A stretch of DNA of 64,000 nucleotides from a virus. Position 1 is the first letter of the stretch. Each line of letters begins with the position of its first letter. The translations under genes were made by a program, and so were the position numbers. The notes below the pieces were generated by a model. It saw only the letters and a list, made by a program, of their open reading frames with translations. It was not told the DNA's origin and searched no databases. Shown one piece after another: positions 15,215 through 38,342 of the stretch. The stretch is from the IMG/VR virus record IMGVR_UViG_3300031162_001603, positions 253 to 64,252 of that record; one strand, written 5' to 3'.

Positions 15215-15535
15215 TTACTTATTGTTTTTTTCTATTATTTCAATATAAGCATTTTTATCTTGAAGTCCAACAAGTTTACCAACTTCTTCTCCATTTTTTA
15301 TTGCAAATACAACTGGTATATTTCTCACACCATATTTAGCTGACAATTCTGGGTTATCATCAACATCTAATTTAGCTACAGTAACATCTGATTCTTCTGA
15401 CAAGTCTTCGAGAATAGGTCCAAGCGTTCTACATGGACCACACCATGGTGCTGAAAAATAAACAAGTACAACTCCTTTTTCTGATTCTATTATTTGATTA
15501 AACCCTTCTTGATTTGGATTAATTAACTTTCCCAT
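15215..15535 (-). CDS. trxA: Thioredoxin
   Basis: WCGPC active site, LDVDDNPELSAKYGVRNIP. Confidence 0.95.
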   Translation of the reverse strand: MGKLINPNQEGFNQIIESEKGVVLVYFSAPWCGPCRTLGPILEDLSEESDVTVAKLDVDDNPELSAKYGVRNIPVVFAIKNGEEVGKLVGLQDKNAYIEIIEKNNK

Positions 15536-15670
15536 GATTAAATTTTTAGTTTTTTATTGATTTATACATTTTCTTTCTATTTATATAAAAAAGCAATAGA
15601 AAGCTTTTGAAGATAAAAATAAATAATTGCTATAAGAAAATCAATTTTTTTGAATATTTATTAGAAACAA

Positions 15671-16042
15671 ATGAAAATGAACAAATCAAAAATTAGCCCA
15701 ATCGCTATTAAAAAAGCTGTTTTCGAAGAAGGTCTTAGAATCAAAAGAAAAGAAGAGCTTTACGAAGAAGTAAGAAGAATCAATAAAGAACTTGGTACAA
15801 TTAACGAAGCAAGCGTAGGTATGGCTGGTTCTTTCGGATTTGTAGGAGACCAGTCTGATAACCATAAACATGGTTTTGTAGATGATTCTTTCCAGAACAT
15901 TTCAAACATCGCAAGATTAGAAAAAGAATTCGAAGCATCTGATGCTAAAGAGTCAATCAATGAAGATATCATTGATGAAAACTCTCAACTTAAAGCTGAA
16001 ATTGAAGAGCTTAAGAAAAAACTTGAAGAATCAAAAAAATAA
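15671..16042 (+). CDS. Hypothetical coiled-coil protein, putative head-core protein
   Basis: Shares the RINKELGT block with 16070..16765; TATTTAT motif at 15655. Confidence 0.6.
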   Translation: MKMNKSKISPIAIKKAVFEEGLRIKRKEELYEEVRRINKELGTINEASVGMAGSFGFVGDQSDNHKHGFVDDSFQNISNIARLEKEFEASDAKESINEDIIDENSQLKAEIEELKKKLEESKK

Positions 16043-32350: not shown

Positions 32351-33541
32351 ATGAGTGTATTTTGCGCAGAGGGGTGTCTTACTGGTATGACCAGTACAGA
32401 GAAAAATCAGATTTTCCGAAGAATTAGGAGAAAGATTGGTGCGCCTGTTATGGGGGTGGAATTAGTTGATGAGCAGATAGAGGAATGTATCTGTGAAGCA
32501 ATAGAGGAGTATTCTTCATACATAAATGACTGGGTTCTTAGAAATAGGCTTGGAGAGATGCTTGGTCTGCCTTCAGAAGTGGATTTTACATTAAAATATG
32601 TTTCCAATAGTCTTTATTTCGAAAGGTCTTATGCGACTGATATAGGTGAGCAAATAGGTCTTGGAGCTAACGGAACAACGGAGGTTAAAACAACTTCTAT
32701 AAATTTAACTGCTGGTACTCAAGATTATAGTGTACCTGAGGGAAGAGAGATTTTAGACATTCTTTGGTTTACTCCTTCTTTCATAAATTTATTTGGACTT
32801 GACCCTTTTGCTAATTCAAATATCGCATTTAGTGAGTTTGGAGCTTCATTTGCAGGGCATTCTCTTTATTCAGTAATGCCTGTTTTTGATACAATAATGA
32901 CCGCTCAGGCTGCTGAACTTAGAAATAGAGTAAGGGGTTCTGAATATCATTACATAATCAGGCCTGGACCAGATGGCACAAAAACAGTTAAGTTATTTCC
33001 AGTACCTAGGTCAAGCGGAGCTGTTGCTGGAGGTAATAGTAATATGGGAATTGGTGGTGGAGCTGGTACTCCAGGTACTGTGTTTTATACATATAGAGAT
33101 AGGGTTGGATATTATGGTAATTCTAGTTTTAGTGGTATGAACGCTAATCCAGGGTATTCAGCAAGTACAGAGACAGAACAGGGTAATGGTTTGGTTTCAG
33201 GCCCAGGTGATGCTCAACTTAATTATATCAACTGGAATCAACTTAATTCTGTTGCTCAAACTTGGATTAAAAAATACGCCCAAGCACTTGCTAAAGAGTT
33301 ACTTGGTATTGGTATTAGAGGTAAGTTTAATGGACAGCTACCAATACCTGGGGCTGAATTAACATTAAATAAAGATGACCTTATTTCAACAGGTAGGGAG
33401 GACCAGCAAAGACTAATGGATAAGCTTGAAAAAGACCTTGAGGAGCTTTCTTATGATAGAATAATGGAAAAAAGAGCTGCAGTGCAAGAGGCTGTAAATA
33501 GAACTCTTATGTACGTTCCTATGAAAATATTTACATACTAA
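32351..33541 (+). CDS. Neck protein (T4 gp13-like)
   Basis: RRKIGAPVMGVELVDEQIEECI, WIKKYAQALAKELLG..RGKF...PIPGAELTLN. Confidence 0.85.
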   Translation: MSVFCAEGCLTGMTSTEKNQIFRRIRRKIGAPVMGVELVDEQIEECICEAIEEYSSYINDWVLRNRLGEMLGLPSEVDFTLKYVSNSLYFERSYATDIGEQIGLGANGTTEVKTTSINLTAGTQDYSVPEGREILDILWFTPSFINLFGLDPFANSNIAFSEFGASFAGHSLYSVMPVFDTIMTAQAAELRNRVRGSEYHYIIRPGPDGTKTVKLFPVPRSSGAVAGGNSNMGIGGGAGTPGTVFYTYRDRVGYYGNSSFSGMNANPGYSASTETEQGNGLVSGPGDAQLNYINWNQLNSVAQTWIKKYAQALAKELLGIGIRGKFNGQLPIPGAELTLNKDDLISTGREDQQRLMDKLEKDLEELSYDRIMEKRAAVQEAVNRTLMYVPMKIFTY

Positions 33542-33545
33542 TTAA

Positions 33546-34118
33546 ATGGCTGATTTAAACGAAATAGGTAGACAACCAGATGGATTCAATGAAGATGAAT
33601 CTAAACCAGATGGTGTTGGATTATTTTTTGGAGATAAAGAGCGTGCGTTTTTTAGCCAATCTGGAAGAGAAATGACTGAAAATATCCTTCAAGAGTCTAT
33701 GATGCTCTTCAGGATAGATTTAAAAAGAACTCAAACCCATGGGATATATGGTGAAGCTAAAGCCTTTCAGAAGAATTGGAAGCCAGAATTAAAGATACTA
33801 GGTCGTATTAACGTTGAGTCAGTGGAGCCTGAATATGCAGCTGACCAGGGTCTTGTAAAAAAAGGTTTTGGACAACTTACTGCTCATATCTACATGGAAC
33901 ATCTTGAGGAGCTTGGTATTGTTAAGTATGAGCAAAATCAAATTGTTGTTTTTGACCTTAATGATGGTGATTTTATTGGATTTAAAGACCAGTACTATAA
34001 GATTATTAATAATGGTCATGCTCAAATATCTAATGAATTCTCTTGGGGTGGTGATAGAAGGTTTTATATTACCATTAGCGCTATTGAAATAGATGAGGAT
34101 GTTTTTAAAGCTAGATAA
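33546..34118 (+). CDS. Neck/head-closure protein (T4 gp14-like)
   Basis: Follows gp13; FFGDKE, IYGEAK, FDLNDGDFI, QYYKI. Confidence 0.65.
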   Translation: MADLNEIGRQPDGFNEDESKPDGVGLFFGDKERAFFSQSGREMTENILQESMMLFRIDLKRTQTHGIYGEAKAFQKNWKPELKILGRINVESVEPEYAADQGLVKKGFGQLTAHIYMEHLEELGIVKYEQNQIVVFDLNDGDFIGFKDQYYKIINNGHAQISNEFSWGGDRRFYITISAIEIDEDVFKAR

Positions 34119-34130
34119 GATATAGGTATT

Positions 34131-34170
34131 CTATATCTTCTTATATCTTCTTATATAATCTTATATAGCT
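34131..34170. repeat. Four imperfect tandem 10-bp repeats
   Basis: ctatatcttc ttatatcttc ttatataatc ttatatagct. Confidence 0.85.
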
Positions 34171-34455
34171 ACCAGACTTAGGGAAAATTCCAAAAAGATA
34201 ACGCCCCCCCTATTATCCCCCCCTCTATAAAAAGGTATTAACCTTTTTTAAAAGAGTCCTATGTGAGAGGACGCTAAGTTAATTGTTATACTTAGACTTA
34301 CACCTGCAGTGACAGGAACCAAATTGCTTTGGCGGATAATAGAGAGTTTGTTTTCCAATAAATCTGGTAAAAACTACCATGCTCAGTGCAAAATCTCTGT
34401 GAAAGAAAGCAACGCCCCCAAAAATAAAACTCGTTCACAGAGCAAAACTATGGTA
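34168..34455 (-). ncRNA. Candidate structured non-coding RNA (~290 nt), antisense to the neck/tail operon
   Basis: Nested long-range helices whose mismatches become G-U pairs only on the minus strand; four or five internal hairpins; TATTTAT motif 6 nt upstream on the minus strand. Confidence 0.6.
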
Positions 34456-34461
34456 AATGTA

Positions 34462-34468
34462 ATAAATA
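34462..34468 (-). promoter_or_regulatory. Late-promoter motif TATTTAT pointing into the structured region
   Basis: Plus-strand ATAAATA at 34462-34468. Confidence 0.5.
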
Positions 34469-34518
34469 AAAACTACGATTTCAAGAAATCTTTTAACTAT
34501 TTATTAAAAAATAAACTA

Positions 34519-35232
34519 ATGGCAATAAATGATAATATAGGGAGGGAGCTTGATAAGGATTTTGAGAACTTTAATTATTTGCCTCAAAAGCTTGAGCTTG
34601 AAGACCTTGACCAAGGAATAAAAACTTTTATTGGAGACCTAGATATAAGTATGGTAAATGAAAATGGTATACTTGCAAAAGTTCCTATTATTTGGCTTGC
34701 TCAAGAGTTATGGGCAGAAAGAAAGCTTAATTGGAAAGAAATGAGAAGTGAAGTTGGGGAAGAAATAACAAGACCATTTATGACTATCTATAGAAACTCT
34801 GTTGTTCCTGGTACTTCTCCTCTTAAAAGAACTATACCAAAGAAGATGAGGTTTAGATTTGTTAAGGTCCCTGTTTTTGATGGAACTCTAAAGGGGTATG
34901 ATTTATATAAAATACCACAACCAGTTTGGGTAGACTCAACATACACACTAAGTTTATTTACACATTATATGGTTGATGTAAATACTTTTTATCAAATGAT
35001 ATTATCTGAAGGGTATTCAGACGGGCAAGGTTATATGAAAATTAATGGATACAACATAAGTTCAAAAATAAGCGACCCAAGTGAAAATAACAAAACAGAT
35101 ATAAATCAGGAGAAGGTTTATAGGATTGATGTTCCTATTACGGTTCATGGCAAATTGATTGACCCAACTAAATTTGAAAAAGTAAATACAATCACTAAGG
35201 TATTAATTAAAATTTCGGAGAAAAGAAGATAA
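34519..35232 (+). CDS. Tail terminator/completion protein (gp15-like)
   Basis: Position between neck and sheath; KVPIIW, RPFMTIYR, PQPVWVDSTY; start moved to ATG 34519 behind TATTTAT at 34498. Confidence 0.6.
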   Translation: MAINDNIGRELDKDFENFNYLPQKLELEDLDQGIKTFIGDLDISMVNENGILAKVPIIWLAQELWAERKLNWKEMRSEVGEEITRPFMTIYRNSVVPGTSPLKRTIPKKMRFRFVKVPVFDGTLKGYDLYKIPQPVWVDSTYTLSLFTHYMVDVNTFYQMILSEGYSDGQGYMKINGYNISSKISDPSENNKTDINQEKVYRIDVPITVHGKLIDPTKFEKVNTITKVLIKISEKRR

Positions 35233-35651: not shown

Positions 35652-38342
35652 ATGGCAACAATATTTGTTTCACCTGGTGTATTTACAAGAGAGCAAGATT
35701 TCACAATCTTTGCATCAAGAATAGGTATTACAAGGTTGGGAGTAGTTGGTAAGACCTTAAAAGGGCCTGCCTTCGAACCAATTAAAATAAGAACTACAGA
35801 CGACTACTTGGCAAGATTTGGGTCTACAGACCCTAATTACCCTCTTCCTTATGTAGCTAATTCATTCTTAGCACAATCAAACGAACTAACTGTAACGAGA
35901 GTTTTAGGAAGTGATGGATTTACAAACTCACCAGCATGGATAATCATGGCTGATGTTTCTACGACTTATTCAGGAAACACAACTCAATCAGGTATGACAC
36001 TTACTGTGTCAGAACAAGCTGCTGGTAGCAACTGGACATTCACTACATCTGGAAATACTGTAAACCCTTCAAAGTTATCAGCATCAACTGTTGGTACTGA
36101 TATATTCGTAGACTACAATACAAACAGTGGTAGTACCTCAACTGTAGAGTGGTTAGCAGCATTAAACGCAACTGCTTTTAGCGGAATGGGTATTAGTGTT
36201 TCAGGGACGGACTCTACTTCATATCTTGGAGGAAACATTACATTCAATCTTTCGGGAGATACAATTGAAGCTAATGGCTCTAAGTCAGGTTCTACACTTG
36301 CGGTAATTAGAAGTAAGAGAAATCAGCTTGATAACTCATTTTACTTCGATGAAGAAAGTGATATTACAATTGGAGCACTTACATCTACACTTGGAAGCTT
36401 TATTCTTAGTGGTGCAACTGGGCCTCTTACTGCTCAAACAAATAGCGGATTTACAGTTTCACTTGATGAAACAAGAGAAGATTATATAACTAAAATACTT
36501 GGACAAAATCCAGAGATTATAGAAGGAGCGCCTCAGCTTTACGTTGAAAGCATCTACCCTCATTTTGTTAGAGAAGCAAGTGCTAGAGGTGATATAGAAT
36601 CTCTTAATCCAACACTAGCCTATACAAATGAAGCATCTTATACAGATTATGCTGATGGTTATACAAATGCAATTACTCCATGGGTTGTGTCAAGAGTAAT
36701 TGGTGGTGATGTTAAAAACTTATTTAGAGTACAAACTATAGCTGATGGTGACGCTTCAAATAGAGAAGTAAAAATCTCTATAGCGAACATTGACATCAAC
36801 AATTATACATTCGATATCATCGTAAGAAGATTTGAAGATACAGATGCAACAGCATCATCTACAGCTATTGAAAGATGGTCAAACCTCTCTCTTAGAGAAG
36901 AAGATGCAAATTATATTGCTAAGGTAATTGGTACAACTGATGAAACTTTCCCAAGAAAGTCAAGTTTCATTACAATTGACCTTGCGCCTTCATTCCCAAG
37001 GAATACAGTTCCTGCAGGATTTAGAGGATATGACTTAAGGGATTCTGGAATTTCAGGTTCTACTTCTGCTGGTGTATATTACAAAACTGATTACTTATCA
37101 GGAGATTCAACATTCAAAACATACCTTGGTATTTCTGAGCTTGGATATGAAAACTTTACAACTGACCAAGTATCATCAAGAACTGCAATTAAAAGTATCG
37201 AAGCTGATTTATTTAATTATGCAGGTGGTGTAACTACAGATATAACTACTGTTAAAGGTTTCCACATGGAAAACACAGCTGATTCAACAGCATTCGTTAG
37301 TGGTGATGAAAATTCACTTACTGGATATACAAATGCAGCTGGAACATTAATTGATAGAAATAAACTTAAATTTACACTTGTACCTTACGGAGGATTTGAT
37401 GGATGGGATAAGTACAAAACTTATACAGACCTTTACGAAGAGTTTACAGATTCTTACACAGAAAATGTTAATTCATTCAAAAATGCTCTTAACGAAATGG
37501 CAAACCCAGAAGTTGTAGACATTAACGTTCTTGCTACTCCAGGTGTTGACTACAGTAATAACTCAACAGTTGTTAAGTACGCACTTGATATTGTAGAAGA
37601 TAGAACTGATATAATCTACGTAATTGATGCGCCAAGACTTACAAGTGGTTCTGTAAAAGGAACTCCAGAAGAGATAGTCTCAAGACTTGAAGCAACTGGT
37701 ATTGATAGCAACTATGCTGCAACATACTGGCCTTGGATTCAAATTGAAGACCCTAACTCAGGTAAGTATACTTATCAATCGCCTACAATGATGGCAGTAC
37801 AAGCTTACGCACTTACAGATAATGTAGCTGCACCATGGTTTGCTCCTGCAGGACTTAATAGAGGTTTAGCTGGACCACAAGTTGTGAGAGCTGATGTTAG
37901 ATTGAACAACAGTGATAGGGACACACTTTATCAAGGTAGAGTTAATCCAATTGCAACGTTTGTACAACAAGGTGTTTGTATTTGGGGACAAAAAACTCTT
38001 CAAGTTAGACAATCATCTCTTGATAGAATTAATATCAGAAGATTATTACTTCAAGTTAGAAGATTAGTATCTGCTGCATCTCTTACATTATTGTTCGAAC
38101 AAAACGACCAAACATTGAGAGACCAGTTCTTAGCGAAAGTTGAGCCTTTACTTCTTCAAATTCAAAATCAAAGAGGTTTAACTGCCTTTAAGGTTGTGAT
38201 GGATGATAGTAATAATACTCCAGATACAATTGACAGAAACACGTTAGTTGGGAAGATTCAACTTCAGCCTACAAGAACTGCTGAATTTATTGACCTTACT
38301 TTTCAAGTTTTACCCACGGGAGCACGCTTTGAAGATTTTTGA
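35652..38342 (+). CDS. Tail sheath protein (gp18-like)
   Basis: FVSPGVFTREQD, GKTLKGPAFEP, DSNYAATYWPW, WFAPAGLNRG, RDTLYQGRVNPI, IWGQKTLQ, LDRINIRRLL, PTRTAEFI. Confidence 0.96.
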   Translation: MATIFVSPGVFTREQDFTIFASRIGITRLGVVGKTLKGPAFEPIKIRTTDDYLARFGSTDPNYPLPYVANSFLAQSNELTVTRVLGSDGFTNSPAWIIMADVSTTYSGNTTQSGMTLTVSEQAAGSNWTFTTSGNTVNPSKLSASTVGTDIFVDYNTNSGSTSTVEWLAALNATAFSGMGISVSGTDSTSYLGGNITFNLSGDTIEANGSKSGSTLAVIRSKRNQLDNSFYFDEESDITIGALTSTLGSFILSGATGPLTAQTNSGFTVSLDETREDYITKILGQNPEIIEGAPQLYVESIYPHFVREASARGDIESLNPTLAYTNEASYTDYADGYTNAITPWVVSRVIGGDVKNLFRVQTIADGDASNREVKISIANIDINNYTFDIIVRRFEDTDATASSTAIERWSNLSLREEDANYIAKVIGTTDETFPRKSSFITIDLAPSFPRNTVPAGFRGYDLRDSGISGSTSAGVYYKTDYLSGDSTFKTYLGISELGYENFTTDQVSSRTAIKSIEADLFNYAGGVTTDITTVKGFHMENTADSTAFVSGDENSLTGYTNAAGTLIDRNKLKFTLVPYGGFDGWDKYKTYTDLYEEFTDSYTENVNSFKNALNEMANPEVVDINVLATPGVDYSNNSTVVKYALDIVEDRTDIIYVIDAPRLTSGSVKGTPEEIVSRLEATGIDSNYAATYWPWIQIEDPNSGKYTYQSPTMMAVQAYALTDNVAAPWFAPAGLNRGLAGPQVVRADVRLNNSDRDTLYQGRVNPIATFVQQGVCIWGQKTLQVRQSSLDRINIRRLLLQVRRLVSAASLTLLFEQNDQTLRDQFLAKVEPLLLQIQNQRGLTAFKVVMDDSNNTPDTIDRNTLVGKIQLQPTRTAEFIDLTFQVLPTGARFEDF

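Follow-up and report, generated by a model that had tools for sequence, protein, structure and literature searches.

A minus-strand structured RNA predicted between two neck genes of uncultured T4-like phages

The gp14–gp15 spacer and its relatives

The IMG/VR virus record IMGVR_UViG_3300031162_001603 is 64.8 kb long, with a completeness estimate of 24%. The 64,000 nucleotides (nt) of it analysed here (positions 253–64,252, hereafter the window) form a low-GC phage fragment (guanine plus cytosine, GC, ~30%) with T4-like morphogenesis genes on the plus strand. Within the T4-like neck genes, a ‘gp14’-like gene of 190 amino acids (33546–34118, plus strand) is separated from a ‘gp15’-like gene by a spacer of 400 nt (34119–34518). 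An initial annotation of this DNA had proposed that the spacer holds a structured RNA, antisense to its neighbours and expressed from a late promoter of its own. We show by comparison of homologous spacers that the spacer encodes a predicted independent non-coding RNA gene on the minus strand, which would run from ~34449 to at least 34168, a length of at least 282 nt.

The gp14-like gene is preceded by an Ad2/gp13-like gene of the same T4-like morphogenesis block (32351–33541, plus strand). On the other side of the spacer, the gp15-like gene (34497–35232, plus strand, if its late motif is taken in; conserved ATG at 34519) is served by the sense late motif CTATTTAT at 34497–34504, and further on lies the tail sheath gene (35652–38342, plus strand). 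The orientation of the RNA is opposite to that of both gp14 and gp15, and the RNA promoter and the gp15 late promoter are placed back to back, diverging from each other.

We collected related loci from IMG/VR and the JGI metagenomes by searching with gp14 and with a gp14 profile, which gave ~60 loci. Removal of duplicates and truncated contigs left 42 distinct spacers with a recognisably homologous element, all of them in the same gp14–gp15 slot, down to a gp14 identity of ~55%. In a close group gp14 is 74–97% identical and the RNA is ~290 nt long; in more distant groups gp14 is ~52–58% identical and the RNA measures ~225–330 nt. A covariance model of the 5′ domain detects a single copy at each locus and no further copy in 239 kb.

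The element appears to be confined to one lineage. A motif scan of IMG/VR placed it in this T4-like clade only, and neither a 26-base motif pattern nor the gp14 profile had a match in 185,579 prokaryote species, each represented by one genome, so that neither a cellular homologue nor a prophage copy was found there. Among 50,697 GenBank phage records, searched with the spacer (BLASTN) and with gp14 (TBLASTN), there was no cultured relative. The tail sheath protein has distant matches only; these are a Microcystis phage, at ~34% identity, and Flavobacterium phages, at 41% over the C-terminus.

Covariation, strand and repeated modules

The nested helices that the initial annotation had drawn by eye are indeed present in the window. 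They join 34170–34180 to 34359–34369 (11 base pairs, bp, with one plus-strand C–A mismatch), 34182–34187 to 34351–34356 (6 bp), 34206–34218 to 34334–34346 (13 bp, with two plus-strand C–A mismatches) and, nearer the predicted 5′ end, 34395–34403 to 34434–34442 (ctctgtgaa/ttcacagag). The repeat AACGCCCC on which it had also remarked has exactly two copies in the 64 kb, and both lie within the element; 0.1 copies would be expected by chance. Other details needed correction. The pairing taccat/atggta (34375–34380 with 34450–34455) exists in the window but has not been kept in relatives, and its right arm falls at the predicted start or upstream of it; the small hairpins can be found, but cctg/cagg and gtcct/aggac are better taken not as separate hairpins but as segments of one long irregular hairpin (34258–34316) whose pairs covary (for example, nine CG against nine GC). 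The region 34160–34470 folds better than its shuffles on the minus strand (−89.1 kcal/mol, z = −4.5) and also on the plus strand (−67.9 kcal/mol, z = −4.4). Because both strands beat their shuffles, the folding energy marks the element as structured without choosing between them.

Further evidence for structure comes from the 42 distinct environmental contigs, in which the helices are kept through compensatory changes. RNAalifold, when given a raw MAFFT alignment of the whole family, returned only four pairs, because the middle of the element cannot be aligned across groups; per-group alignments and an anchored duplex analysis were therefore used in its place. For the close group (18 sequences) RNAalifold predicts 60 pairs, of which 30 are compensated. 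With the helices P1 and P1b (below) added, the structure has 62 pairs and is 94.2% paired, compared with 41–54% when partners are slid, and 33 pairs show double changes where 17.4 would be expected, a result that none of 500 shuffles reached. In a distant group (13 sequences) half of the 30 predicted pairs are compensated.

Read 5′ to 3′ along the minus strand, on which all of the following features lie, the RNA would open with hairpin PA (34395–34442), in which 34434–34442 pairs with 34395–34403 to close a large conserved loop. The loop carries G motif 1, GGGGGCGUUG (34410–34419), which is unpaired and whose columns are invariant or nearly so. All seven tested PA stem pairs show double changes among the 42 sequences; PA cells are 90.9% paired, against 30–63% with a slid partner, and 0 of 500 shuffles gave as good a result. 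A conserved single-stranded linker, UUUUGCACUGAGC, then leads into U motif 1 (AUGGUAG, 34380→34374), the two together occupying 34374–34394 in nearly invariant columns.

Next come the 5′ strands of three helices. That of P1 (UACCAGAUUUA, 34359–34369) has as its partner either U motif 1, in a local hairpin, or the 3′ tail, in P1 proper; that of P1b (GGAAAA, 34351–34356), with 34182–34187 as its partner, reaches 77.8% pairing in the close group; and the pyrimidine-rich strand of P2 (CUCUCUAUUAUCC, 34334–34346) has cells that are 94.9% paired, with many U–G/C–G exchanges. P1/P1b and P2 close a large domain in which P2 encloses one to four variable hairpins. In the window this variable multiloop (34221–34332) contains H1 (34319–34332), the irregular hairpin H2 (34258–34316) and H3 (34221–34256). 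Double changes were found in five of five pairs of H1 and in 11 of 16 pairs of H2, spread over three segments, while H3 varies mainly by U–G/C–G exchange and has a single double change. In the distant groups the multiloop is shortened or replaced.

The 3′ strand of P2 (G7, AUAAUA, G7) runs into G motif 2, GGGGCGUU, the two together spanning 34200–34223 (aacgccccccc on the plus strand at 34200–34210); the last G residues of this region and its CGUU are unpaired in the consensus. The nearly invariant 3′ tail (34168–34187) is made up of UUUUCC, which is the 3′ strand of P1b, CUAAGU, and U motif 2, CUGGUAGC (34175→34168), which doubles as the 3′ strand of P1. The conserved part of the RNA ends, then, with unpaired GGGGCGUU followed by a conserved tail ending in CCCUAAGUCUGGUAG and reaching to 34168.

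P2 itself, consisting of two G runs and a spacer paired to a pyrimidine strand, is present in every lineage examined, always ~66–82 nt downstream of the first G motif. The sequence between its G runs takes at least 12 different forms, and for each of them the other strand shows the complementary change; among these forms are AUAAUA, CUAUA, CUACA, UAA, AUGAGA, AAAGA, AUUCA and AGUAAGA. On the plus strand, the same region of the window (34200–34225) reads as a C-rich, G-poor sequence (C7, TATTAT, C7) with the look of a Rho-loading site, should late sense transcripts cross the spacer.

The substitution pattern assigns the structure to the minus strand. On the minus-sense consensus structures, G–U cells outnumber A–C cells by 156 to 7 and by 71 to 7 in the two groups, and the partner opposite an invariant G drifts freely between C and U. 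The minimum free energy is lower on the minus strand in all 42 homologues, although the G+U richness of that strand contributes to this. We also considered whether the structure might belong to the plus-strand late mRNA, as part of the gp14 3′ untranslated region or the gp15 5′ untranslated region, as the good folding of the plus strand (z = −4.4) might suggest. However, folding the same alignments in the plus sense reduces the predicted pairs from 60 to 39 and from 30 to 13, with loss of P2 and H3 and with only four to five G–U cells kept. Moreover, the C/U drift opposite invariant G amounts to A–C mismatches on the plus strand, and the conserved promoter (see below) reads the minus strand. 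On these results a plus-strand structure is hardly credible. Covariation and the asymmetry between G–U and A–C together bear out the structured minus-strand RNA of the initial annotation.

The conserved sequences of the RNA form a two-part motif that is present in two copies, each consisting of GGGGCGUUG and, ~30–38 nt further 3′, UGGUAGU. Module 1 comprises G1 (GGGGCGUUG, in the PA loop), the descending strand of PA, UUUU-ACACUG and U1 (AUGGUAGU); module 2 comprises G2 (GGGGCGUU, unpaired after P2), a descending U-rich strand, CCCUAA and U2 (CUGGUAGU). The spacing within each module is fixed, with U1 37–41 nt after G1 and U2 31–37 nt after G2. The copies also change together. The G motif has become GAGGGCGUUAG twice in locus L022, GGGGCAUU twice in L079 and GGGG(A/G)UUUGA twice in L046, and U1 and U2 have changed in step in L038, L041, L045, L046, L047, L074 and L079, giving two copies of UGCAA in L038 and in L047, of UGCUGA in L045, and of GCAAUAU(AUC) in L041 and in L074.

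A single UACCA-type strand is complementary to both U1 and U2, and it is this double complementarity that would allow the RNA to switch between two pairings. In the close group the strand can pair with U1 in a local hairpin (97.5% paired) or with U2 over a long range, forming P1 (90.6%), and its own changes are only such as are compatible with wobble pairing.

Direct repeats of a two-part motif that evolve in concert are reminiscent of iterons or operators, and the repeats might act at the level of DNA, for example as sites for an initiator, the terminase small subunit (pac) or a regulator, with RNA structure being secondary. The substitution pattern is, however, RNA-like and strand-specific. 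The flanks of U motif 1 covary so as to keep a small hairpin (for example, GAUAU/AUAUC in place of AAUAU/AUAUU), and the two repeats stand anywhere from 107 to 234 bp apart. We regard a DNA-level role as very unlikely.

Loci L027 and L013 (7100–7330) carry a natural short variant in which the G motifs are 117 nt apart, rather than the usual ~210 nt. The variant lacks H1–H3, and with them most of the multiloop, while PA and the linker are intact, as are the G runs and the tail. We take the two modules and P2 to be the core of the RNA, since this variant keeps them without most of the multiloop. At four further loci (L035, L037, which is the same as L008, L046 and L077) the same slot holds a larger or strongly divergent minus-strand G-run element behind a TAnnTTTG box. 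The 5′-domain covariance model does not detect these elements, which are probably distant members of the family. That of L037 lies ~560 nt after gp14, that of L077 carries GGGGAUAGGGGGAACU and then CCCUAAAAAG, and that of L046 has GCAAG twice besides its two G motifs. Three other loci (L039, L052 and L078) have a different arrangement after gp14. In L039 (2218–2277, minus strand) there is a near-threshold match to the RAGATH-18 RNA (RF03064), scoring 42 bits where the gathering score is 44.9 (E = 6e-5).

Promoter, ends and expression

Upstream of the RNA, the family shares a pattern that consists of an A-rich stretch, TTG, 20–21 nt and TAnnTTTG. The −7 box of the window, TACATTTA (34454–34461, minus strand), is homologous to the TAnnTTTG of the relatives, which is exact at the homologous place in 37 of 41 relatives, the other four having a near-exact box. 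The upstream promoter element, recognised by eye in the window, is CTTGAAA (34479–34485, minus strand), which can be read as a −33 TTG or as a −35-like TTGAAA; its TTG is homologous in the relatives, and in 38 of the 41 it stands 20–21 nt upstream of the −7 box. A sigma-70 scan picks out the same site, as TTGAAA, 17 nt and TACATT (minus strand, 34484–34456). In Flavobacterium the sigma-A box TAnnTTTG spans −12 to −5 (PMC9723704), and it is from this position that we predict +1 at ~34449.

The region matches in sequence a sigma-A promoter of Bacteroidota, which has a TAnnTTTG box with a TTTG or TTG ~19–21 nt upstream of it. This suggests that the host belongs to the Bacteroidota and that the RNA would be made by the unmodified host RNA polymerase, in which case it would presumably be made early or throughout infection, and not late. 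A second exact TAnnTTTG, TAGTTTTG (34443–34450, minus strand), lies 11 nt downstream of the degenerate homologous box; its use would put the start inside the 5′ hairpin stem.

The late promoter that the initial annotation had given to the RNA was built on a minus-strand TATTTAT at 34468–34462, which is present. The late motif of this phage is the sense sequence (C/A)TATTTAT(A/T)A, the reverse complement of the T4 late box, which is placed ~20 nt (15–30 nt) before many late-gene starts (plus-strand sites include 32022, 34497, 35259, 38461, 38979, 44041, 52399 and 52753), and CTATTTAT occurs 14 times in the window compared with 7.8 expected. The minus-strand copy at the RNA, tTATTTATtac, matches this motif imperfectly and falls inside the spacer of the TTG/TAnnTTTG promoter. 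It is conserved in the close group only and absent in the distant group, which has no late motif upstream of the RNA yet keeps one upstream of gp15. The sense motif that characterizes late-promoter-driven genes is not conserved upstream of the RNA start, and we have abandoned the idea of a late promoter.

In a marine metatranscriptome, two 151-nt unitigs from relatives correspond to 34304–34448 and 34404–34444, in the 5′ half of the RNA, with ends at 34444–34451, within ~5 nt of the predicted +1. The sequence of the window itself was found in one sequencing run only, which is probably its DNA source. The unitigs are a weak hint of expression, coming as they do from unstranded contigs that give neither strand nor level and that could reflect carry-over of DNA. 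This ambiguity counts, with several further points, against the reading preferred below. The host assignment derives from the promoter motif by itself, and the same promoter sequence agrees with a generic sigma-70 promoter at 9 of 12 positions. The pattern TTTG-N17–21-TAnnTTTG is not enriched in the window (4 occurrences, 4.2 expected). At the other end, a canonical minus-strand terminator is not conserved, a hairpin followed by a U-run being found in only 3 of the 42 homologues.

Beyond the conserved tail lies an AT-rich stretch (34117–34167) that may hold the RNA 3′ end, the gp14 terminator, or both. It contains four CTTATAT-type repeats with a 10-nt period (34131–34169), between the RNA tail and the 9-bp hairpin (34117–34139) that the initial annotation had pointed out and that abuts the gp14 stop. 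The sequence of the stretch is not conserved, and relatives have other AT-rich palindromes here, such as AAGTTAATATTAACTT or TTACTAnTAGTAA.

An RNA in this position could act in cis, as an antisense RNA or insulator of the neck operon. Converging on gp14, and by pairing with read-through late mRNA or through collision with late transcription, it would uncouple gp14 from gp15 or set their timing, and the C-rich, G-poor plus-strand sequence could add a Rho loading site. Its position between gp14 and gp15 is fixed in all relatives, its orientation is opposite to both neighbours, gp15 has a late motif of its own downstream of the element and, as no clear terminator follows on the minus strand, the RNA may extend into gp14 in antisense. 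The gp14 stop lies on one side of the element and the gp15 late motif on the other. Synteny alone, however, accounts for the fixed position, and an antisense RNA, which is complementary to its target by construction, would need neither invariant loops nor duplicated, co-varying motifs. Many relatives have a plus-strand hairpin with a U-run right after gp14 at which, judged by eye, sense transcripts would stop before reaching the element. A role in cis seems to us improbable.

The promoter and the AT-rich DNA are also what might be expected of the primer or R-loop RNA of a replication origin. Such an RNA would be an early host-polymerase transcript held on its C-rich template by the G runs and G motif; its 3′ end would prime DNA synthesis in the adjacent AT-rich DNA, and folding or alternative pairing would decide whether the hybrid forms. 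R-loop origins are established for T4 (oriF and oriG). In keeping with this, two runs of five to seven G residues, 1–10 nt apart, are conserved on the RNA-like strand of a genome with ~30% GC; the upstream G/U motif copy has the same sequence as the downstream one and is thus the complement of the template there; the promoter is of host type; and AT-rich DNA follows, with no canonical minus-strand terminator. Nevertheless, the G runs appear to be selected for pairing inside the RNA, as judged from the compensated P2 spacers, at least 12 in number, and the C/U drift opposite invariant G. Peripheral hairpins that vary are more in keeping with a free folded RNA, the downstream AT-rich repeats are not conserved in sequence, and the GC skew, with its minimum at ~15.5 kb, has no inflection at 34.2 kb. 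We think a primer unlikely, if less so than a role in cis. A variant in which the fold controls priming, with the upstream module anchoring the transcript to the downstream C-rich template and the UACCA switch setting free RNA against a persistent R-loop in a large Bacteroidota phage, is slightly less probable again; it would be the phage equivalent of priming by ColE1 RNA II or at mitochondrial conserved sequence block II.

The minimum of the cumulative GC skew is at ~15500–15700, where a minus-strand glycan gene block and a plus-strand block diverge. If the fragment contains a skew-marked origin, it would be there.

A possible trans-acting role and likeness to known RNAs

The reading that we prefer, though tentatively, is that of a trans-acting RNA that presents two equivalent two-part sites to one partner and is fitted with a pairing switch. 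The two modules, as duplicates evolving in concert, would provide the equivalent sites, and the partner would most likely be a protein dimer or two copies of one protein. Two equivalent sites for a single partner would suit the RNA to act as a scaffold or a decoy, and the switch between U1 and U2 pairing could expose or hide one of them.

One observation speaks against a bivalent protein-binding RNA of this kind. The concerted change of the U motifs looks free of sequence constraint, and pairing with a shared complement would explain this no less well than recognition by a protein. Sites elsewhere in the window that share 10–12-mers with the element are chance AT-rich matches only.

Ideas of molecular mimicry were also entertained, with a clustered regularly interspaced short palindromic repeat (CRISPR), the 5′ half or D-loop of a transfer RNA (tRNA), or 16S helix 24 (CUGGUAGU) as the model. 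They were dropped because the two modules have different interiors, because the spacing is wrong for such models, and because the U motif is not constant among divergent lineages.

The initial annotation could not match the RNA to the familiar classes that it named, and our searches agree with it. The Rfam 15 comparison, which took in transfer-messenger RNA (tmRNA), RNase P, signal recognition particle RNA, 6S RNA, group I and II introns, riboswitches, ribozymes, phage packaging RNA (pRNA), GOLLD and ROOL, gave no match at the gathering score over the whole window. With E up to 10, the region 33900–34700 returned noise only (9.6–18 bits against cut-offs of 65–113), and the element in 11 relatives had no match at E up to 0.1. 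ARAGORN found no tRNA or tmRNA gene in the window, and literature searches found no description of the RNA. Since no Rfam family, tRNA or tmRNA fits, no published description was found and the RNA is a member of none of the systems with which it was compared, we conclude that a new RNA family without detectable Rfam relative is well supported.

The phages that carry it form a deep clade of large, uncultured T4-like phages, whose hosts are probably Bacteroidota. A search of a protein atlas with one auxiliary gene gave no clear host phylum. Large aquatic ‘moraphages’ with predicted Bacteroidota hosts and a family B polymerase were described in 2025 (PMC12619734) and may be related to the source phage, although a DnaE-type enzyme was noted here by the initial annotation.

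The RNA has been kept in one genomic slot across ~50% protein divergence, and its design, with two co-evolving copies of a two-part motif, a twin-G-run helix and alternative pairing, offers handles for finding its partner. Should it prove to be a bivalent decoy or scaffold made early by the host polymerase, or a fold-controlled R-loop primer, it would represent a new RNA-based phage mechanism, and one from a host phylum in which little is known of RNA biology.

Several known systems share some of its features. ColE1 RNA II, T4 oriF/oriG and mitochondrial conserved sequence block II are alike in having a promoter-driven transcript, a G-rich RNA-like strand and AT-rich DNA downstream; in them, too, upstream G-rich RNA matches a downstream C-rich template and alternative folds are possible. 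The present RNA differs from them in lacking sequence or Rfam similarity, in having its G runs within a covarying helix, and in the absence of a skew or origin signal at the locus. The pRNA of phi29-type phages is likewise a structured phage RNA with a host-type promoter beside head and neck genes. There is, however, no Rfam pRNA match, and the repeats described here are identical, rather than complementary between molecules; nor is RNA known to take part in packaging by T4-type motors. The large, ornate RNAs GOLLD, ROOL and HEARO and other candidate motifs found in metagenomes resemble it as phage-borne RNAs with strong covariation, variable peripheral hairpins around a conserved core, and no need of coding potential. 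Compared with GOLLD, ROOL and HEARO, the RNA described here is smaller (about 230–320 nt) and belongs to one T4-like clade and one genomic slot, and it has two co-evolving two-part modules.

RNAs of the CsrB/RsmZ type and 6S RNA share with it a stable, structured RNA in which repeated short motifs are exposed in loops or single strands. It differs from them in that the repeat is a long two-part motif in only two copies; it also lacks GGA-type CsrA sites and a central bubble like that of 6S RNA. Even so, the closest working likeness is most likely to be with such protein-titrating RNAs with repeated motifs.
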